Shown piece after piece: positions 4,697 through 25,720 of a stretch of 26,326 bases of DNA. The stretch spans positions 1 to 26,326 of the forward strand of contig JANOTL010000003.1 of NCBI GenBank assembly GCA_031416315.1. Direction: 5' to 3'. Source of the stretch: Pseudomonadota bacterium (GTDB taxonomy: Bacteria > Bdellovibrionota_B > Oligoflexia > Oligoflexales > CAIYRB01). Numbering within the stretch: the stretch's first letter is position 1; every line of letters starts with the position of its first letter. Position numbers and translations under genes: made by a program. The notes under the pieces were generated by a model. That model did no database searches. It had not been told where the DNA came from and saw nothing but the letters and a program-made list of their open reading frames with translations.

Positions 4697-5062
4697 TCAT
4701 TTCGTCGGTGTGACGACGGGTGTCACTTGCTGCGGCGTCCGGGTATTCGAGGCCCCTCCCGGCATCTTATCGGTCGACCAGGTACCTGCCCGAGCTTGGC
4801 AGTCCGCCTGATTCGCGGCTGAGGCCGCGGTGGCCGTGCCGCCGATGCAGCGAGCCCCTCCGTCTCCCGCTTTGTTCGATTCGACGCGGCCTGCCGAGGC
4901 CTTCACACCGGCATCGGTTTCGGATTCGGCCGGAATCGTGAGACCGGACGTGGTCGGCGTGACGGGAGTGCTGCTCGAGCCTTTTTCCGCCAAAGCGCGC
5001 GCCCCGACGGCGGCAAGATACACGGCGGCGCCGGAAAGCAGCACCGTCTTAAGGGTTTTCAT
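4697..5062 (-). CDS. Small secreted Ser/Thr/Gly-rich protein with a Cys pair
   Basis: Start re-assigned to MKTLKTVLLSGAAVYLAAVGARALA (signal peptide); contains CIGG...NQADCQARAGTW. Confidence 0.7.
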   Translation of the reverse strand: MKTLKTVLLSGAAVYLAAVGARALAEKGSSSTPVTPTTSGLTIPAESETDAGVKASAGRVESNKAGDGGARCIGGTATAASAANQADCQARAGTWSTDKMPGGASNTRTPQQVTPVVTPTK

Positions 5063-5148
5063 CGTTCTTTCCAACATCATGAGCTCCTTCGAGAGTTCCA
5101 GATCTTCACCCGGGCCTTCATGCAATTGCGGCGCCAAGAGGAGACGAT

Positions 5149-5739
5149 ATGATCGGTAGCGGTACGGTGGCCTTGAAGAGGCAACACCATGAGCACGAAC
5201 AATGTGACGAGATCGTCGCTAACACCGCGGAGGTGCTGTGCGCCTTGCAAGCACTCGCAAAACCCCAGCTGCTCAGGATGAAGAAATACGCGCGTTATCG
5301 CATGCGCGCGATCGGGGACGCCGCGCGTGGGCGCAATGACGAGGACCTCCTCGGCGAAGCGCTCACCGCCACCCTTTCGGGACAGCGTCGCTGGAAGCCG
5401 CGCTCTGTCGACTTCGAAGGGCACATGCTCGGGGCGATGCGTAGCATCTCCTCGCATTGGACGGATCGCAAACCCCACCTTTCGCTAGAGGACGCGCCGC
5501 CCGTAGCCTCGCTCAAAGGCGATCCCGAGCGCGAGCTCGCCGCGAAAGAGGAGATCGCCGCGATCCGCGCGCGCTTCGCGCACGATGCGGTCGTCCTCGG
5601 GTTGATGGAGGACTTGAGCCTCGGACTCACCGGCCCGGAAATCAAGCTGTCGCGCGCGTGGTCCCAAGCGGATCTGGAGACGGCCATGCGACGACTCCGG
5701 CGTGGCGTGGAGAGGATGGGCGGAGGACGGCGCTCATGA
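5149..5739 (+). CDS. Atypical ECF-type sigma-70-like factor
   Basis: AGGAG SD; region-2-like LLRMKKYARYR...EDLLGEALTATLSGQRRW...GAMRSISSH and region-4-like HTH GLTGPEIK...LETAMRRLRR. Confidence 0.7.
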   Translation: MIGSGTVALKRQHHEHEQCDEIVANTAEVLCALQALAKPQLLRMKKYARYRMRAIGDAARGRNDEDLLGEALTATLSGQRRWKPRSVDFEGHMLGAMRSISSHWTDRKPHLSLEDAPPVASLKGDPERELAAKEEIAAIRARFAHDAVVLGLMEDLSLGLTGPEIKLSRAWSQADLETAMRRLRRGVERMGGGRRS

Positions 5740-6059
5740 GCGAGTTGACCGCACGACTGCGCCTCTTCTCGGCCTTGGCCGAAAGCAGCGCGCAGCTATC
5801 CGATGCCGAGGCGCTCGCGGAGGCGATACCGGGCGAAGCCGAGCGGATTCACGCGAAGCTTTTGCAAGTGGCGCGGGACCACGAAGCGTTGACGCAACGC
5901 GATTTGCTACTCCCGGATACGCCTGGCGAGCGTCGCGACTTTCTGGAGCGGGTGCTGCGACGGCTTGCGATTCCCTTCGAAGACCTCGGCGAGCTCACCG
6001 ACACGGACGTCGAAGGCCTTTTGATTCGCCTCGGCGAAGTCGGATTCTTGCCTGCCTGA
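5736..6059 (+). CDS. Hypothetical 107-aa acidic helical protein coupled to the sigma-like gene
   Basis: ATGA overlap at 5736-5739, GGAGG upstream; MSELTARLRLFSALAESS...LTDTDVEGLLIRLGEVGFLPA; no TM helix. Confidence 0.75.
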   Translation: MSELTARLRLFSALAESSAQLSDAEALAEAIPGEAERIHAKLLQVARDHEALTQRDLLLPDTPGERRDFLERVLRRLAIPFEDLGELTDTDVEGLLIRLGEVGFLPA

Positions 6060-12961: not shown

Positions 12962-13117
12962 GGGGGCATCGTCTCAAACCTCAGCCAAAAAATCCACGCC
13001 CGAATGCGTCGTTTAGGCCGGCCTTTCCGACTCAATTGCGATTTTCGGGCGAAATGCTACAAGCCGCCTGCTCGCCTGTACACAACCAGAACGTAATAAA
13101 CAGAAGTGAGTTTACAC

Positions 13118-13741
13118 ATGTTTGCCAAAATCGCGACCTTGGTGTCCGTATTGTCGTTCGCCGCTCCGGCCGTGGCCCAAGACGGCGATGGCTCGAATCT
13201 CGGCTATGCCGCCGAGAACGTCCGCGAGGAGGCGGCGGAATTCGTCCGCATTCTCGGCTATCAGGAGCAGCGCGACCACTTCGAGCTGATCAGCGCCGGC
13301 GGGATGCTGGCGAAAGAGGCGGACGAACTGGCGCGTGCCAGCGATCTAGACCCGTACAGCGGGCGCGACGGCTTTCGCGGCACCGCGGATCGCGAGTACC
13401 GCGAGGTGCAGAATGCGTGGCGGGCGTTGAATGACGCGTGGAGCTGGATTCGGATCCGCTCGCACGAGGCGGCCCGCCAAATGGGCCGGATCGCGGCCGC
13501 GATCCGCGAGCTCGAGTATGTCTATGGATACGACGACGGCTACGAACCGGGCTATCCCGGCCAAGGCAATCCGGGCCAAGGCAATCCGGGCCAAGGCAAT
13601 CCGGGCCAAGGCAATCCGGGCCAAGGCAATCCGGGCCAAGGCAATCCGGGCCAAGGTGGCTATTCCGGCCAGGGGAATCCCGGTCAAGGCGGCGGCGACC
13701 ACGGCGAAGGCGACACCGGCGTGATCATCATCCGCCGCTGA
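13118..13741 (+). CDS. Secreted helical protein with (GQGNP)n repeat tail
   Basis: Signal MFAKIATLVSVLSFAAPAVA-Q; helical domain followed by GQGNP repeats. Confidence 0.8.
   Translation: MFAKIATLVSVLSFAAPAVAQDGDGSNLGYAAENVREEAAEFVRILGYQEQRDHFELISAGGMLAKEADELARASDLDPYSGRDGFRGTADREYREVQNAWRALNDAWSWIRIRSHEAARQMGRIAAAIRELEYVYGYDDGYEPGYPGQGNPGQGNPGQGNPGQGNPGQGNPGQGNPGQGGYSGQGNPGQGGGDHGEGDTGVIIIRR
13561..13656 (+). repeat. 15-bp tandem repeat (CCAAGGCAATCCGGG) x6 plus a partial unit, in-frame
   Basis: Six exact copies at 13561-13650, then CCAAGG; degenerate copies continue to about 13690. Confidence 0.97.
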
Positions 13742-18828: not shown

Positions 18829-19800
18829 TCAAACCAGCTCCAAGCTCATGAACAGATTGACCCGCTTGTACTTCGACCCCGCGCGCGCCGGATCTGGGAC
18901 GAACCCGCAGCGACGGTACAGGTTCACGGCCGGCGTCAGGCTGTCGTTGGTCTCGAGGTGAATGGATGTTGCCCCCGCCGCGGTGGCCCGGGCGATCGCC
19001 GCTTCCATCAGCTTTTTCCCGATGTGGCGCCCTTGCGCCTTCGGATCGACGGCCATCTTCGCCAGCTCGAACGCGTGCGCCCCGCGGGCGATCAGCGCTA
19101 CGCAGCCGACGATCTCGCCATCAAGCTCGGCGAAGAGGACGTGGCCTCCGTCGGCGACGATGGTCCGCGCGGGGTCGCTGAGCATCTCGACGTCGCTCGG
19201 CTCGACCGCGAAGTAGCGCTCGATCCATGCGAGATTTAGGGCGCTGAAGGCGTCCTTCAGCCGGCGCTGGCCCGCCTTCGACTCGCGGATGAAGTCGACG
19301 ATGCGAACGGTCGCGAGCTCGCGCGTCGTGCGGCGGTCCTTCATGCGCTCGGCGATGCTGCGCTCGTCGAGGACGCGCTCGAGGCGGCTCAGGGCGGAGA
19401 TGACGTCGATGCCCGTCTCGGCGGTGATCTCGTCGACGGCGGCGCGCATATCCTTCCACAGCGGCTCGAGCTTGGCGGCGAGGTCTTTGCCCTTGGCGGT
19501 GAGGGCGAGCCGCGTCTTGCGCTCGTCAATTTTGTCCTTCGTCGCGGTCGCGGCCCCGCGCGTCACCATGTCGCGCGCGATTTGGCTGACGGCCGCGTGC
19601 GACAAGCGCAAGGCCTTCGCCGCCTCGCCCGTCGTCATCGGCCCGGTCTCCCGGAGCACCGAATAAAGCGGGAACCAGCGCGGCTCGAAGCTCGCGTCCT
19701 GCTCCGCATAGATCGCCGCCGCTTCGACCATGAAGCGGTCGCTCAGGCGTTTGAGGCGGCTGCCGAGGGCGAGGCTGCCAAGATGGTGAATGAGATCCAT
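18829..19800 (-). CDS. Bifunctional MarR-family regulator / GNAT acetyltransferase
   Basis: ALGSRLKRLSDR, winged HTH SHAAVSQ...DERK; GNAT FELAKMAVDPKAQGRHIGKKL...LETN...AVNLYRRCGF. Confidence 0.93.
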   Translation of the reverse strand: MDLIHHLGSLALGSRLKRLSDRFMVEAAAIYAEQDASFEPRWFPLYSVLRETGPMTTGEAAKALRLSHAAVSQIARDMVTRGAATATKDKIDERKTRLALTAKGKDLAAKLEPLWKDMRAAVDEITAETGIDVISALSRLERVLDERSIAERMKDRRTTRELATVRIVDFIRESKAGQRRLKDAFSALNLAWIERYFAVEPSDVEMLSDPARTIVADGGHVLFAELDGEIVGCVALIARGAHAFELAKMAVDPKAQGRHIGKKLMEAAIARATAAGATSIHLETNDSLTPAVNLYRRCGFVPDPARAGSKYKRVNLFMSLELV

Positions 19801-19806
19801 GCCGGG

Positions 19807-19836
19807 AACATACGTAAGAGCTTACGGAAGTGTCAA
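19807..19836 (-). promoter_or_regulatory. Sigma70 promoter with palindromic operator in the spacer
   Basis: TTGACA (19836-19831), 18 nt spacer, TATGTT (19812-19807), 6 nt, ATG; inverted repeat CGTAAG-AG-CTTACG at 19813-19826. Confidence 0.75.
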
Positions 19837-19900: not shown

Positions 19901-21997
19901 TCACCGCGGACCGACGTCGGCCGGAGCTGAGGTCAAGGGCTCGCCGAAGATCGCACGCAAAGTGGCGTCGTCCGTGTTCGCCGGCAGGCGCGACGGCATC
20001 GCGATGAAATTCGGCTCGGGCGAGTAGGTCGCGGCGTCGAGCGCCGGCAGCGCCCTGCGCTCCGCGCCGAAGAGCCCAAACACGTACGGATCGTCGGGAG
20101 AGGTGGGCGGCCGCGTGAAGGCGTTGCCGCGCAGGAGGATGTGGACCGCCTCGATGTCGTGATCGGTAGAGCGCTGGCAGCCGAGAACGATCGGCGTCAC
20201 CTCGAGCACAGAGCGTGAAAGCACAAAGCTCGCGACGATGAGTGTGCCATCGCGATGAATAACGGTCTCGTCGCTGTCTTCGGACCCACCGGAGCCGGCG
20301 GAACCACTGCCCGGCTCGCTCCCCGGCTCCGCCGGCATCGCGTCGTACCCCCCCTGGCGCAAGCACGCCTGCTCGATCACGCTCTCGCTTGCATGAACGC
20401 GGTCGATCACGAGCTCGGTCGTCGTGCGCGTCACGTCCGCCACATAAGTCTCGTCGGCGACCTGATGGACGCGGCTGCGCTCGAGCGTCGCGTTGCGCAT
20501 CGACACGGCCTGGCCGCCCCAGGCGCCGAGGTCAAAACTAACGTTCTTCGCCTGGAACCAGTCGAGCGACGCCGATGCCGAAGAGACGCGGATCTGCGCC
20601 ATGCGGCCGTCTTCCACGATGTTCTGAAAGACCACTGGCGCCTCTTTCGTACCTGCGACCACCAGGGGACCGGCGAACGTCGCGCCCCCGCGGATCGTGA
20701 CGCCGGCCTCGACGGTGACGGCGCCCTCGAACGTCGTCGCGCCGTACCAGTTCGAGGCGGGATCAGCCCTGATGTCATCGTCTTCGGGACGCATCCCGCC
20801 AGGGCTCATGACGAGCCGCAGCCCGGGGGAATCGCCGGCCGGCGTGGTCGGCGCGGGCTCGTCGCCGCCGGTCCCAGGGTGCGGCGTCGGCTCGACCGAA
20901 GCCGATGCCGGCGCCGGCGCCGAAACCGCGCCCGTCGTCGAGCTAATGCGGATCGAGGCATTGCCGCTCATCGTGTTCGAGCCGAACAGCGCGACCTTTT
21001 GTCCGGCGCTGAACGTCACCGGCTGCAGGATGTGCCCGTACAAGATGATCCAGCTCGCGTCGAGCTCCGTCGCGAGGAAACTCACCTCGACCGGATCGCT
21101 GGTTTTCCCGTAGGCGTCGCGGAACTCGACGAGGACCGATGCAAAGCCTTCCTCGATCAGGGGGAGCTCGATCTCGGTCTTCAGCGGTTGCCAACGGCGC
21201 AAGGCCACCGAGACCTCCGGGTCACGCAGCATAGGCCACGAGATGAAACGCATGTATTTCACGCCCGGAACCGGGGCGAGGAGCAAGGTCGGCGTCAAGG
21301 TGCGCACGACGACGCCGCCTTCCGCGTCTTTCACCGAGATCTGCCCCGCAGGCCAGGGATTCTCGCTCAGAGTCATCTCGAGCGCGGCGTCCCCAGAGAG
21401 CGCCAGCTCCGAGAATTCCTGCGGCTGGAACATGTCCTTTTCGGCGCGGATGCGGAAGGCGCCCGCCGGCAGGTTGAGCGAGAAAAAGCCCTCATGATCG
21501 GTGAAGCTCGAGAAGGGCGTCCCCGGCACATAGACGAGGACACCGGTAGCGACCGGCTCGTTCTCCAAGCGCACGTGCCCCGTGACGCGGCGCAAGGCGG
21601 AAAGCTCCATGGAGCGCTCTTCGACCACGTTCCCCGGGGTCACGACGACGTCGCGCACCATCCCTTCGCCGGCGGGCGTCGTGGCGATGAGGCGCCAGTT
21701 GCCTGGCTCGAGCGCCGGCAGGAGGAAGCCGCCTTTAGCGTTGGCGATGGTCTCGACCGGCGCCCAGCTTGAGCCGGCACCGCCTTCTTCCCGGCGTGCG
21801 TAGATCTGCGCCCAGGCGCCGGGCCTCCCGCCTTCGCGAAGGACGCGGCCGAGGAACGCGCCCTTGGCCGCCGGCGCGTCCGCCTTCGGGATGCCGAAGA
21901 CGGCGAGATAGGGGTCGTGCAGGTCGTCGAGACCGCCCTCGGAGCACGAGCTCCCGGTGAGCACGATCAGCGCCGCCATCGTCAACGCGCGCAACAT
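19901..21997 (-). CDS. Large putative lipoprotein with carboxypeptidase-regulatory-like (Cna-B-type) domains
   Basis: GAAGGAG SD; MLRALTMAALIVLTGSS-C; two beta-sandwich repeats (GRVL...ANAKGGFLLPALEPGNWRL; VTGHV...TDHEGFFSLNLPAGAFRIRAEK), Pro/Ser linkers, beta-helix-like C-half (GPLVVAGTKEAPVVF). Confidence 0.8.
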   Translation of the reverse strand: MLRALTMAALIVLTGSSCSEGGLDDLHDPYLAVFGIPKADAPAAKGAFLGRVLREGGRPGAWAQIYARREEGGAGSSWAPVETIANAKGGFLLPALEPGNWRLIATTPAGEGMVRDVVVTPGNVVEERSMELSALRRVTGHVRLENEPVATGVLVYVPGTPFSSFTDHEGFFSLNLPAGAFRIRAEKDMFQPQEFSELALSGDAALEMTLSENPWPAGQISVKDAEGGVVVRTLTPTLLLAPVPGVKYMRFISWPMLRDPEVSVALRRWQPLKTEIELPLIEEGFASVLVEFRDAYGKTSDPVEVSFLATELDASWIILYGHILQPVTFSAGQKVALFGSNTMSGNASIRISSTTGAVSAPAPASASVEPTPHPGTGGDEPAPTTPAGDSPGLRLVMSPGGMRPEDDDIRADPASNWYGATTFEGAVTVEAGVTIRGGATFAGPLVVAGTKEAPVVFQNIVEDGRMAQIRVSSASASLDWFQAKNVSFDLGAWGGQAVSMRNATLERSRVHQVADETYVADVTRTTTELVIDRVHASESVIEQACLRQGGYDAMPAEPGSEPGSGSAGSGGSEDSDETVIHRDGTLIVASFVLSRSVLEVTPIVLGCQRSTDHDIEAVHILLRGNAFTRPPTSPDDPYVFGLFGAERRALPALDAATYSPEPNFIAMPSRLPANTDDATLRAIFGEPLTSAPADVGPR

Positions 21998-22022
21998 AGA
22001 GACTCCTTCACCGGCCGTTATT

Positions 22023-23681
22023 TTAGAACGCAAACCCGAGCGAAGCCGTGCCGATCGCGGGGCGCAGGCCCCGTTTGCTGCCGCCTTGAGCGAGGCCTAC
22101 GCTGCGCGCCGGCAGGACGCGCGCGCCGATGCCGCCGTAGAGAGGGCCGACGATCTCGAGCCAGCGCAGCTCGAGGCCGACGGTCGGGAACACCGCCGCC
22201 GCACGCTGAAAGCCGCGCTCGAAGGCGGGATCTGCGAGGGTGCGCTCGACGCCGAGGCGGCCGAGGCCAAGCGCCGCCGAGACCGCGATCGTTTCCTTTG
22301 GATAGAAGCTGTACGTGGCCTCGCCGAGCGCGAGGCTCGTGCGCAGTTGCGTCGGTGTCGGCGTTACCGCAACATCGGAGATCGCGACGCCGTCCAAGGT
22401 CCTTTGCCCGAAGCTCACAACGGCGCCGAAGCGCGAGCCGAGGATCGCGCTCGCACGCAGCATCGCGGTCCAGGTCCAAAGATCGCGCGCCTCCACCTCA
22501 TCCAAACCGCGCGGCAGAGGCAGGCTCGCGATCGCCGCTTCGGCGCCGAAGCTCGGTGGACGGCGCACGAGGCTCGATACCGCGTACGCTTGCCCACTGC
22601 GCACGAAGACGTCGTGATCGATCAAAGGCGTCGTCGGATGCTGCGGATCGACCAGGGTCAGACGCACGCGGCCCGGGGGCAAGCGCTGCGGCTCCCACAG
22701 TGTGCCCTTGTTGCGCCCGTCGACGTAGACCTGCGCCGATCGGAACTGCTCGGCATCCGCGAAGATCAGCGGCGAGGACTCGTGCCGCACGTCGCCGTTC
22801 AGGATGATGGGGTCCGTACCTTCGAGCCGCAGCAAGGCCGTCGGCGTCTGCAGGCCGCGCGTATAGTCGTACGTTTTCGAGCGCGCGAATTCGTGGGCCT
22901 CGAACAGCGAGACGGCGCCGTCGCGATCGGTGTCGTTCTTCTCCAGGCCTTCGAGCAAAAAATGCGTGTAGATGTCGTTGCGGAGGCGGTCATCCTCGCG
23001 CGCAGGCTGGCCCCAGGCGCTGGCCGAAAGCACCATCGTCGCCGCCGACACCTCGTGCAGGGGCTGCGGAAAAAACTCCGACTTGAGCGTCGTCAGCTCT
23101 TTTTCCAGCTCCGTCGGCAGCTGCGACTTGCCGCCGCCTCCCGAGTGGCAGAGCGCGAGAATCAGCGCCTTGCGCGTCGATTTCAGGCGGCTCAGGCGGT
23201 TCTGCAGGTAGTCGAGCGCGACGCCCGTTTGCGCCACCTTGTCGAAGTCGGTGTCCTTCATCGCGGCGAATCGCCGCAGCGCGTGGCCTTCGCCGTAAGC
23301 CAAGGTGCCGTGCGTCGACAGGTAGACGAGGACGATGTCCTCGGACGAGGTGTTCTTCCGCTCCAATTCGTCGAGCGCGGCCGCGAAGCCCGCGCCGGTC
23401 GCGAGATCGTCGATCAGCACGATCTCCTCGTCGCCCTCGGCCTGGTTGTGCGTCGCGAGGAACTGCCGCAGATCGCCGACGTCCTTCTCGGGGAACTTCA
23501 GCTCGCGGAAGCGCTCGTCGGCGAAGCTCCGCACGCCGACGAGGAGCGCTATGCGCCGCGGCCGGAACGCGGCGCTCACGGCCGGCTTGTCGAGCTTGAT
23601 CGTCGTCACCTGACCGGCATCGGCCGCAGAGGCGGCCTCGGCGCCGAGCGCCAGCCACAGCAATGCCTTATGGAGCCACAT
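22023..23681 (-). CDS. Exported caspase-family (peptidase C14) protein with beta-barrel-like C-terminus
   Basis: Signal peptide; RRIALLVGV, LKFPEKDV, catalytic VYLSTHG and LILALCHSG, ARED...YTHFLLEGL, DRDGAVSLFE, QTP; PEGA-like AQVYVDG; amphipathic strands ending ASLGFAF. Confidence 0.9.
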   Translation of the reverse strand: MWLHKALLWLALGAEAASAADAGQVTTIKLDKPAVSAAFRPRRIALLVGVRSFADERFRELKFPEKDVGDLRQFLATHNQAEGDEEIVLIDDLATGAGFAAALDELERKNTSSEDIVLVYLSTHGTLAYGEGHALRRFAAMKDTDFDKVAQTGVALDYLQNRLSRLKSTRKALILALCHSGGGGKSQLPTELEKELTTLKSEFFPQPLHEVSAATMVLSASAWGQPAREDDRLRNDIYTHFLLEGLEKNDTDRDGAVSLFEAHEFARSKTYDYTRGLQTPTALLRLEGTDPIILNGDVRHESSPLIFADAEQFRSAQVYVDGRNKGTLWEPQRLPPGRVRLTLVDPQHPTTPLIDHDVFVRSGQAYAVSSLVRRPPSFGAEAAIASLPLPRGLDEVEARDLWTWTAMLRASAILGSRFGAVVSFGQRTLDGVAISDVAVTPTPTQLRTSLALGEATYSFYPKETIAVSAALGLGRLGVERTLADPAFERGFQRAAAVFPTVGLELRWLEIVGPLYGGIGARVLPARSVGLAQGGSKRGLRPAIGTASLGFAF

Positions 23682-24297
23682 GCAAACGTACGTCCTTCAC
23701 GGTGGCATCGCCGCGCAGTCGCGCGCGAAACACGTAATTTCCTGGGATTTCCGGCTTGAACGCCAGGTAGCCGTCCTCTTTCGCCAAAGTCTCGCGCTCG
23801 CGGCGCAAGACGTGGGTCGTCGTGATGGTCTGGAACGCGCCGCCGTCGACGGCATAAGAGAGCTCCACCGGCGCGCCGCGCTCGGGATCAAGGCCGCGCG
23901 ACTCCACCTCGAAGACGATGGCGGCGCCGACCGGGACCTCGGCGCCGTCGAGCGCGCGGGTCACCTTGCCGTCGCGGGCGACCGCGAGCTTCAGGGCCTC
24001 CAGTTGAGCCGCTACGACGGCGTCGCCTTTCAGGCGCATTCCGTCGTCCTCCGGCGTTGCGAGCCGCGTCGCAAAGACGAGAAAGGCAAGGCCCGCGGCG
24101 AGAAGGGCCCCGAGCTGCCACATCGAGCGCGGCGGGAGGCGCCGCGACTTGCGTCCCGCGAGGTTGGCAAACAAACGCTGCTCGAATCCCTCGGGGATCG
24201 TCGCGCGCGCCTCTACCGCCATCTCCTCGCGCGCCAGCGAGCGCCGCAGTTCCTCACGGAACCCCTCGTTCAGCTTTGCTTCGTCATGCGTCGTCAT
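23668..24297 (-). CDS. Putative membrane anti-sigma factor
   Basis: ATGA overlap with the sigma gene; cytoplasmic helical N-terminus, TM WQLGALLAAGLAFLVFA, then MRLKG and a beta-sandwich (DUF4384/ActD-like) domain. Confidence 0.75.
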   Translation of the reverse strand: MTTHDEAKLNEGFREELRRSLAREEMAVEARATIPEGFEQRLFANLAGRKSRRLPPRSMWQLGALLAAGLAFLVFATRLATPEDDGMRLKGDAVVAAQLEALKLAVARDGKVTRALDGAEVPVGAAIVFEVESRGLDPERGAPVELSYAVDGGAFQTITTTHVLRRERETLAKEDGYLAFKPEIPGNYVFRARLRGDATVKDVRLHVAP

Positions 24298-24848
24298 CGC
24301 GTCCCTCTCCGCCAGCTCAAGCTCACGAGACGCCGCGGCTTCGGGGCCGCCAGCGCGCCGCGCACGCGCGTCCGAAAGCGCGCGAGCCAGGTTGTCACCG
24401 TCGACGGATTCACGGCGAGCTTGGCGCTCACCTCCGCTAGATCCCAGTCGTACAGGTAGAACAGCTCGACCGCTTCGCGCTGCTTGGCATCGCCGATCTG
24501 CGCGATCATCGTCTTCAATCGCCCGAACGTTCCTTGCCGATCGAGCGCGTCCTCGGCGCTCGGACGGCCGTCGTCGGGCGCCGCCGGATCGTCGGCGTCC
24601 TCGCCGATCGGCGTCAGCTTCTTCCGACGCTCCAGCGTGCGGCCCCACTGGCGGCGCGCGATGGTGAAGAGCCAGGCGACGCGCGCTTCCTCGGCACGGA
24701 CGCTGCCGATGCCGCGAAAAGCCTGGGCGTAAGCTTCCTGCATCACGTCCTCGAGGTCTTCCGGACGATCGACGCCGAGCTTCTTCAGGTGCCGCACCAG
24801 CGGTCGCACCGTCGCGCCATAGAAAGCACGAAAAGCTACGGCATCCAT
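24294..24848 (-). CDS. ECF RNA polymerase sigma factor
   Basis: EDLEDVMQEAY, AWLFTIARR (region 2); QREAVELFYLYDWDLAEVSAKLAVNPSTVTTWLARFR (region 4); AAGGAA SD before ATG 24848. Confidence 0.93.
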   Translation of the reverse strand: MDAVAFRAFYGATVRPLVRHLKKLGVDRPEDLEDVMQEAYAQAFRGIGSVRAEEARVAWLFTIARRQWGRTLERRKKLTPIGEDADDPAAPDDGRPSAEDALDRQGTFGRLKTMIAQIGDAKQREAVELFYLYDWDLAEVSAKLAVNPSTVTTWLARFRTRVRGALAAPKPRRLVSLSWRRGTR

Positions 24849-24943: not shown

Positions 24944-24957
24944 CTGTCTCACATGGC

Positions 24958-25578
24958 TCAACGCTTCTGGATCGTCAGATTCTTCAGGTCGAGGGGACGG
25001 GTCTGGTCCAGGCCTTTCGAGATCCCGGCCGTGTCGAAGAACGGGTCGTCGCTGCACGCGACGCCTTCCGACCACGAGTAGATCTCGCCCTCGTGGCGGC
25101 TGATGAGCGCGACGCCTTCGCCCGAACGCGTAATGTACGCCCGGCCGTCCGGGCACTCGACGAATTGATAAGCGGTGGTGACCATCACCGACCAACCGCA
25201 GCCCGGCATGGGCTCGCTCGAGCCGGAGCCGTCGTCGAAGCCGCGACCGGTGTTGCCGCGCTCACCCGTCGTCGGGTTGCCGATGACGATGTCGCCGCTG
25301 GAGGCGAGGCAGTAGCCATAAGGACGCACTTCCTTCCACTGGTCGATGCTCGAGCCGCCGCCCACGAGGATGAGGGAGCCGAAAGCCACGGCCCGATTGT
25401 GGTCGTGAAGGTCGGGCCAGAACCACGGATCCGGGTAGGCCACGACATCGCCCGGGACGGGCTCGCCGGGAACCGTCGGAGTCGACGGGGTGTCGTCGTT
25501 GGCGAACGCGACGGTTGTCAAGACGACGGCAACGCCCGCGGCGACGAGAACGGAGAGCTTTCCTTGCACCGATTTCAT
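24958..25578 (-). CDS. Secreted hypothetical protein
   Basis: AGAGGAG SD; MKSVQGKLSVLVAAGVAVVLTTVAFA-N signal; Gly/Pro-rich with 4 Cys. Confidence 0.78.
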   Translation of the reverse strand: MKSVQGKLSVLVAAGVAVVLTTVAFANDDTPSTPTVPGEPVPGDVVAYPDPWFWPDLHDHNRAVAFGSLILVGGGSSIDQWKEVRPYGYCLASSGDIVIGNPTTGERGNTGRGFDDGSGSSEPMPGCGWSVMVTTAYQFVECPDGRAYITRSGEGVALISRHEGEIYSWSEGVACSDDPFFDTAGISKGLDQTRPLDLKNLTIQKR

Positions 25579-25720
25579 GGACTTACTCCTCTTTGAGTGC
25601 TCGAGGATGTAAGTGCGGCCAGGAGCGCCCTGTGTCTCACGCTCGCCGAAAATACTCGAAAGCAGTTGAATCAATTGATGAAATCGCGCACTCTCGAGCT
25701 GACGTTCCTGGGGGCTTTTC

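Follow-up and report, generated by a model that had tools for sequence, protein, structure and literature searches.

A caspase on a predicted outer-membrane barrel as a candidate site-1 protease of an anti-sigma-like protein in an Oligoflexales genome

We analyzed a stretch of DNA of 26,326 nucleotides (hereafter the window; assembly GCA_031416315.1, contig JANOTL010000003.1, order Oligoflexales) that carries a cassette encoding a sigma factor of the extracytoplasmic function (ECF) type, an anti-sigma-like membrane protein, an exported caspase with a predicted C-terminal barrel, and a lipoprotein. An initial annotation of the window had proposed that the caspase, tethered to the outer membrane, acts as the site-1 protease of the anti-sigma. 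This proposal held up in every computational test run on it and, as judged from sequences and structural models, is partly supported: gene co-conservation, the barrel and the catalytic dyad stood, whereas the cleavage motif had to be corrected to Lys followed by Gly or Ser. We lean towards a reading in which the caspase would make the first cut in the anti-sigma and the sigma factor would drive the same unit, now extended to five genes.

The four genes are co-oriented on the minus strand and code for the sigma factor (P0001, 184 amino acids, 24294-24848), the anti-sigma-like protein (P0002, 209 amino acids, 23668-24297), the caspase-barrel protein (P0003, 552 amino acids, 22023-23681) and the lipoprotein (P0004, 698 amino acids, 19901-21997). 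Their coordinates and tight linkage were as first described: an ATGA overlap joins the sigma and anti-sigma-like genes, the anti-sigma-like and caspase genes overlap by 14 nucleotides, and 25 nucleotides separate the caspase gene from the lipoprotein gene. Each is present as a single copy in the source genome. The unit extends beyond 24848, where it had first been delimited, since a fifth conserved gene (P0182, 206 amino acids, 24958-25578, minus strand) and a promoter-like motif lie further upstream. P0001 matched TIGR02937 with 65.1 bits (cut-off 42.9) and exceeded the cut-offs of PF04542 and PF08281; on these profile matches it is an ECF (group 4) sigma factor consisting of regions 2 and 4 only.

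P0003 matched PF00656 with 37.6 bits (cut-off 21.4) and was the only one of five proteins scanned to match a PADLOC caspase model. The His-Gly and Cys dyad reported initially is present (STHG with His124, ALCHSG with Cys178) and is retained in 76 and 77, respectively, of 77 family members. An AlphaFold2 model built from these 77 sequences (predicted local distance difference test, pLDDT, 91.1; predicted template modeling score, pTM, 0.84) predicts a caspase domain (residues 42-296; 22794-23558, minus strand), a small PEGA-like beta-sandwich spacer (residues 305-367; 22581-22769, minus strand) and an 8-stranded OmpW/OmpA-like barrel of 179 residues (residues 374-552; 22026-22562, minus strand). 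The caspase domain was closest in fold to MALT1, which is Arg-specific (Z 23.7, root-mean-square deviation 3.4, 222 residues aligned), then to AtMC4 and caspase-9 (21.5), with DdvA at Z 10.6. The spacer region was barely sampled by the fold search, and PEGA matched in 1 of the 77 members. The barrel aligned best with OmpW (Z 15.9, root-mean-square deviation 3.0, 166 residues), followed by OprF (Z 14.9) and OmpA (Z 14.7), and one face was more hydrophobic in seven of its eight strands. The model thereby agrees with the amphipathic strands and terminal Phe noted earlier: the last residue is Phe552, and Trp, Phe or Tyr ends 51 of the 77 proteins. The signal peptide claim stood in part. The N-terminus is hydrophobic, carries an A-S-A site by eye and is helical at residues 2-18 of the model, but the segment falls outside the four most hydrophobic windows of the protein. 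In OmpA/OmpW-like barrels both termini face the periplasm, so that the enzyme would be periplasmic.

Meta-, para- and orthocaspases are specific for Arg or Lys. MALT1 binds a basic P1 residue through Asp365, Asp462 and Glu500 (PMC4357240). By motif and alignment, rather than by superposed coordinates, Asp67 (75/77) and Glu229 (77/77) of P0003 fall where MALT1 Asp365 and Glu500 bind P1 and are candidates for the S1 pocket. P0003 resembles MALT1 in that a beta-sandwich follows the caspase fold and in that helix 1 and loop 5 supply acidic residues for S1. It departs from MALT1 and AtMC4 in that the loop-4 Asp is Ala in its clade, in being exported and barrel-anchored, and in its EF-hand-like loop. 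The linker following the catalytic Cys contains Lys185-Ser (69/77) and Lys200-Ser (74/77), with small residues after the Lys, placed like Lys225, the autoinhibitory self-cleavage site in the linker of AtMC4 (bioRxiv 2020.03.09.983940). The EF-hand-like loop, D-x-[DN]-x-D-G-x-V-S-x-x-E (residues 250-261; 22899-22934, minus strand), is a possible Ca2+ site; D250, D254, G255 and E261 are kept in 74, 73, 74 and 74 of the 77 proteins, three of which match an EF-hand family of Pfam.

We then considered how far the genes travel together. A search with P0003 gave matches at 79 places in 41 of 131 genomes of the phylum, and 60 of the 78 places outside the window, mostly the stronger or fuller ones, were examined. 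At 53 of these 60 loci, genes for a sigma factor and for an anti-sigma-like protein were both present no more than 3.5 kb from the caspase, in line with the co-conservation expected by the initial annotation. Two truncated loci had the anti-sigma-like gene only, and five had neither, four of them being fully flanked. Three gene orders were seen, namely sigma-anti-caspase-lipoprotein, large protein-caspase-anti-sigma-anti, and anti-sigma-caspase; the linkage has therefore outlasted rearrangement. A profile of the anti-sigma-like family, built by iteration from the caspase loci, matched in 41 genomes, all among the 44 with a caspase-profile match, and in none of the 87 others. Since the profile derives from caspase loci, its positives are circular while its negatives are informative, and no p-values are claimed because kin are not independent. 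A word-index search with P0002 returned the self-match only. Named relatives of the caspase belong to Oligoflexales, Oligoflexus, Pseudobacteriovorax and Bdellovibrionota, and a profile search at E 0.001 gave 1914 representatives; a scan of a genome collection gave one relative, which was already in the set. The name Oligoflexus tunisiensis is attached to relatives of both the caspase and P0182 (P0020, P0188), so that a described species seems to carry both.

The strongest conservation in the anti-sigma-like family lies at the proposed cleavage site. The R-L-K-G sequence noticed earlier is indeed found at residues 88-91 of P0002, about 10 residues past its single transmembrane (TM) helix, but RxKG is not conserved as such: it occurred in 8 of 60 proteins compared without alignment, and Arg occupied position -2 in 13 of 65 aligned relatives. 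In the same alignment the Lys90 column held 63 Lys, one Arg and one Ser, and the next column 49 Gly, 14 Ser, one Asp and one Asn; Lys90 is the only near-invariant residue besides Met1 in a family whose median identity is 16%. Because Arg is rarely kept, and Lys with Gly or Ser nearly always, the motif is K-G/S rather than RxKG. From this conservation and the control counts below, the Lys90-Gly91 bond (24025-24030, minus strand) is the proposed scissile bond. In the alignment-free set, in which P0002 took the place of the longer open reading frame (ORF) of the window and one incomplete row was left out, K[GS] occurred within 26 residues past the TM helix in 56 of 60 proteins, compared with 17.6 (maximum 29) in shuffles of the same windows and 9 of 60 in a window further downstream. 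For an unbiased control, TIGR02937 was used to select 60 loci from five genomes; after exclusion of 11 that did not fit the ECF profile, 12 with no downstream gene and 13 with no TM helix, 24 were left. K[GS] was found in 10 of 10 caspase-linked TM partners versus 3 of 14 unlinked ones. Proteins of the FecR kind cleave themselves at Gly-Thr; this is unlikely for the anti-sigma-like family, in which the residue past Gly/Ser varies.

P0002 itself had no match in Pfam or NCBIfam. Its AlphaFold2 model comprises cytoplasmic helices at residues 7-28 and 38-47, a TM helix at 60-78, a flexible linker of low confidence at 79-97, in which Lys90-Gly91 is exposed, and an immunoglobulin-like (Ig-like) sandwich at 98-208, for which Foldseek returned generic Ig-like folds only. 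The protein fits the layout of a single-pass anti-sigma, with a sigma-coupled gene, one TM helix and an extracytoplasmic C-terminal domain. Its distant family members touch DUF4384 below the cut-off, and single-pass proteins bearing DUF4384 are putative anti-sigmas of ECF25 (PMC7826278, supplement). Similarity to a zf-HC2 cluster (0.87) serves as a lead only. P0002 is likely a sigma inhibitor in the membrane.

The upstream motif reads TGAGACA (25633-25639), a 17-nucleotide spacer and CACTTA (25610-25615), and is predicted to be the cognate ECF promoter (25610-25639, minus strand), 31 nucleotides ahead of the ATG of the fifth gene. The pattern TGAGAC(A/G)-N17-(C/T)AC(T/C) was found upstream of 9 of 10 sigma genes and 8 of 11 fifth genes of the subtype (17/21), against a mean of 0.29 and a maximum of 3 in 500 shuffles. 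Initially, the pattern had been drawn up by eye from a set of sequences with the window among them; a blind count of gapped words in the nine sigma upstream regions from outside the window put the same motif on top (8/9). With a matrix made from 17 non-window sites, the window site (25639-25610) was the best in the 6.4-Mb genome at 21.0 bits, the next match reaching 17.1 bits, which is the level of shuffles. Relatives carry the full motif before the sigma gene (9/10); in the window, a lone TGAGACA is found there (24945-24951, minus strand) with no -10 match at 17 nucleotides, and it is likely to be a second promoter that has decayed. When two boxes precede an ECF gene, this fits autoregulation, as is also stated in PMC10028731.

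We also looked for a wider regulon. In the source genome, 6 matrix matches reached at least 15 bits, compared with 6 and 8 in two shuffles. The pattern matched 28 times in 10 relatives; 15 of these lay at the cassette or the fifth gene (training sites). The 13 elsewhere, of which 9 fell inside long ORFs, compare with 17 matches of the reversed pattern. The motif was not shared by other subfamilies (1/29). With the best genome match at the cassette and no excess elsewhere, the regulon is predicted to consist of the unit itself, with P0182, a predicted direct target of the sigma factor, at its head here. Intergenic matches at L203, L216 and L212 lie about 300 nucleotides before a conserved 329-residue secreted-type protein (two genomes) and 80 nucleotides before a 482-residue lipoprotein-like ORF; as possible extra targets they are within the chance counts. 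The only promoter found by a sigma-70 scan was that of the downstream MarR-GNAT gene, no convincing terminator was seen, and the window had no Rfam match.

P0004 had been called a giant lipoprotein; it is 698 residues long, and it is a subtype-specific partner, since other caspase subfamilies have Kelch or RCC1 propellers or uncharacterised proteins in its place. Its lipobox Cys18 is aligned in 11 of 11 N-termini, with Gly at the lipobox -3 position here. Two stretches match CarboxypepD_reg (PF13620), and the C-terminus is likely a beta-helix, similarity to beta-helix clusters (0.84-0.85) being a lead only. Shedding of the lipoprotein by the caspase at a K-G site in its tether was rejected, the site being present in only 4 of 11. 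P0182, which has no Pfam match, contains four conserved Cys (90, 127, 142 and 175) and, from its sequence, is likely secreted. Its homologues occur in 12 of the 131 genomes, all of them caspase-positive, and in 7 of 11 other genomes they adjoin the cassette in an upstream, divergent or downstream position.

These elements can be assembled into a working scheme. At rest, the caspase would be a zymogen held by its own linker residues Lys185 and Lys200, as by Lys225 in AtMC4, perhaps with Ca2+ gating at the EF-hand-like loop. An envelope cue, most likely sensed by the subtype-specific lipoprotein, would set off self-cleavage, after which the activated enzyme would cut the anti-sigma between Lys90 and Gly91 and the periplasmic Ig-like domain would be shed. 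As in textbook regulated intramembrane proteolysis, RseP would then cut the TM stub and free the sigma factor; the source genome encodes an RseP that exceeds the TIGR00054 cut-off (G000:C75). We infer that the free sigma would bind TGAGACA-N17-CACTT and drive P0182 and, by read-through, the cassette, giving positive feedback. For the complete two-membrane circuit, in which a Lys-specific outer-membrane caspase unlocks itself at K-S, cuts the anti-sigma and governs a one-promoter regulon headed by the small Cys-rich P0182, we put the chances slightly below even.

Several observations weigh against this scheme. The first is distance: the barrel-tethered enzyme would reach about 8 nm and the site lies at most about 4 nm from the inner membrane, which together is less than a typical periplasm. 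No release site is conserved between caspase and barrel, K325 being kept in 40 of 77; cutting during export or upon failed barrel assembly would, speculatively, solve the problem of reach. The second is the S1 pocket. At position 176, which precedes the catalytic Cys by two residues, 56 of the 77 proteins have Ala and 20 have Asp, and P0003 has Ala; Ala176 argues against a standard pocket because the equivalent change D137A abolishes self-cleavage of AtMC4 (bioRxiv 2020.03.09.983940). However, Asp-type and Ala-type caspases alike adjoin K-G/S partners. Furthermore, no anti-sigma domain family of Pfam or the Protein Data Bank matched the cytoplasmic domain of P0002 among 65 members scanned, and the anti-sigma set was gathered by an iterated profile from kin that are not independent. 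Chance gives K[GS] in about 3 out of 10 windows of this kind, and a caspase-unlinked sigma partner of the source genome (C97) also has K-S past its TM helix. Finally, sigma and anti-sigma are both missing from 4 of 49 fully flanked caspase loci (L062, L063, L066, L067), and no caspase adjoins three sigma/anti-sigma pairs that carry R-G (L096-L098).

The four lone caspases, which lie beside DUF3857/transglutaminase-like genes, would suit a reading in which the caspase is a mere output of the sigma factor, an envelope protease acting on lipoproteins or on outside proteins; a host protease of the DegS/Prc type would then cut the anti-sigma, whose Lys-Gly/Ser would be kept for another reason. The geometry would be easier, and the predicted promoter places the caspase in the regulon of its own sigma. 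We nevertheless consider this unlikely: the motif tracks the caspase (10/10 versus 3/14) and recurs in the caspase linker, none of the 87 caspase-less genomes has a member of the anti-sigma family, and the lipoproteins have no conserved K-G/S tether site (4/11).

The conserved Lys and dyad would also be explained by a constitutive cut at K90-G91 that matures the anti-sigma, the pieces staying joined until a later separation gives the signal, as proposed for RsgI and FoxR-type proteins; pre-cleaved anti-sigma systems are discussed in PMC11506125. If done at the inner membrane during export, such a cut would also ease the problem of distance. However, the linker at K90 is disordered in the model (pLDDT about 55 for residues 81-90), leaving nothing to join the pieces, and neither the autoinhibitory linker lysines nor the outer-membrane anchor would have an obvious purpose, which makes this reading rather improbable as well. 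It is doubtful, too, that Lys90 sits uncut in the S1 pocket as a pseudo-substrate, so that the two proteins would form a bridge like FecA/FecR and relay a conformational signal, or the anti-sigma would restrain the protease. The loss of one S1 Asp in 56 of 77 proteins, and a barrel, periplasmic domain and membrane anti-sigma laid out as for cell-surface signaling, suit such docking, but the dyad is retained (His 76/77, Cys 77/77), unlike in pseudo-caspases, and the residue past Lys is small in 63 of 65, as expected for a scissile bond. Very improbable is a role of P0002 as a caspase cofactor, with the sigma regulated otherwise: the missing anti-sigma family match and the mere two modelled cytoplasmic helices would fit, but the ATGA translational coupling to the sigma gene, the sigma adjacency in all gene orders, the precedent of DUF4384 single-pass proteins as putative ECF25 anti-sigmas (PMC7826278, supplement) and, as a lead only, the zf-HC2 cluster speak against it.

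Cell-surface signaling by FecA, FecR and FecI combines an outer-membrane barrel with a periplasmic N-terminal domain, an inner-membrane anti-sigma and an ECF sigma in one locus. The cassette differs in having a barrel of 8 strands in place of a 22-stranded TonB-dependent transducer, with no plug or TonB box, and in that the N-terminal domain of P0003 is an enzyme; the FecR domain PF04773 was not among the families matched by 65 anti-sigma members at E 0.05. With RseA, DegS and RseP the proposal shares a periplasmic site-1 cut followed by RseP, but its site-1 enzyme would belong to the clan CD cysteine proteases and sit in the outer membrane, in place of an inner-membrane serine protease. DdvA/DdvS of Myxococcus xanthus likewise unites an ECF sigma, a single-pass anti-sigma and a periplasmic caspase-like domain, with a proposed juxtamembrane linker cut preceding RseP (PMC11506125). 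There, a TPR-CHAT domain is part of the anti-sigma and the regulon comprises cyclic-oligonucleotide-based antiphage signaling (CBASS) and clustered regularly interspaced short palindromic repeats (CRISPR) systems (PMC11506125), whereas P0002 has 209 residues with a 110-residue Ig-like domain, the protease is a C14 enzyme in its own right, borne on a predicted outer-membrane barrel, and the cassette forms its own predicted regulon. The type III-E system of Csx29, Csx30 and CASP-sigma, too, has a caspase-like protease with a sigma inhibitor as its substrate, and the sites of the sigma lie in the sigma's own locus; Csx29 is, however, a cytoplasmic RNA-triggered CHAT protease acting on a soluble inhibitor, with no membrane crossing (PMC10028731). 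The cassette would be RseA-type proteolysis laid out like cell-surface signaling, and would fall outside both the FecIRA and the DdvA type.

Operons of sigma-70 factors and metacaspases were described in Myxococcus xanthus DK1622, Anaeromyxobacter, Haliangium, Sorangium, Ralstonia and Fibrobacter (Asplund-Samuelsson 2012, PMC3501461). Like the cassette, they join a caspase homologue to a sigma-70 factor, and N-terminal signal-like helices are common. In the part of that paper cited here, no mention is made of an anti-sigma, a barrel, a cleavage site, a promoter or a mechanism, and 'Bdellovibrio' has 0 occurrences. A similarity to Myxococcota clusters in the atlas (0.90) is a lead only. The word 'caspase' has 0 occurrences in the main text and partial supplement of the ECF reclassification (PMC7826278), whose uncut tables may bear on the point. 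Literature searches, judged from their listings, gave no account of a barrel-anchored caspase as a site-1 protease. Most bacterial caspase homologues are without a known substrate, and their operon link with sigma-70 factors has been unexplained since 2012. The cassette offers test points that each need a single change: Cys178, Lys90, Lys185/Lys200, the 30-nucleotide promoter and the target gene. If true, the proposal would join Csx29 and the proposed self-cut of DdvA as a third way in which a caspase-like enzyme governs transcription, and would introduce a new class of site-1 protease, located in the outer membrane. In that case a defined substrate, site and promoter could also be named for a bacterial caspase, along with a defined output that has nothing to do with cell death or CRISPR.

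Other loci showed variations on the same parts. Three genomes (G065, G064, G073) each have a lone Asp-type caspase (L063, L066, L067) beside a gene of about 870 codons and, elsewhere, a lone sigma/anti-sigma pair (L096, L097, L098) with R-G replacing K-G; two of the R-G pairs have a gene cluster nearby, for which a scan in L098 gave imelysin, di-haem oxidoreductase and porin. These lone caspases and pairs may represent a split system. For the fourth lone caspase (L062, genome G068) no such pair was detected; its neighbor, the only one of these genes scanned, is DUF3857/transglutaminase-like. At L065 (640-1272, 1811-3493), the one caspase-linked partner with R-G adjoins an Asp-type caspase in which Arg also occupies the first linker site (G-R-S); this is one isolated instance of possible covariation. 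In one subfamily (L044-L049, L052, L053, L088-L090, L107, L108) two anti-sigma-like genes, nearly always both with K-G/S, flank one sigma gene, mostly with a protein of 830-1020 residues upstream of the caspase, for which the two scanned gave no Pfam match. The source genome also contains an orphan anti-sigma-like gene (L109:5838-6512, G000:C172) with K-G past the TM helix; neither a sigma nor a caspase lies within some 6 kb of the gene, which is possibly a second substrate or a remnant. Its second C14 protein is a lipoprotein-like caspase of 392 amino acids (L001, G000:C68, 1117-2295), unrelated to the barrel type and followed by an RCC1-like repeat lipoprotein (L001, 155-1072).

Within the window, a MarR-GNAT fusion (18829-19800, minus strand; sigma-70-like promoter at 19807-19836) lies 100 nucleotides past the lipoprotein gene, outside the cassette, and a low-molecular-weight phosphatase/ArsC-like gene (PF01451; 25721-26152, plus strand) is divergent from the predicted promoter. 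A secreted-type protein (13106-13741, plus strand) has tandem five-residue P-G-Q-G-N repeats near its end. By eye, the ORFs at 4697-5137 (minus strand), 5149-5739 (plus strand) and about 5734-6059 (plus strand) comprise one that is sigma-like or of the helix-turn-helix kind, a short ORF coupled behind it and, divergent from these, a small secreted-type ORF.

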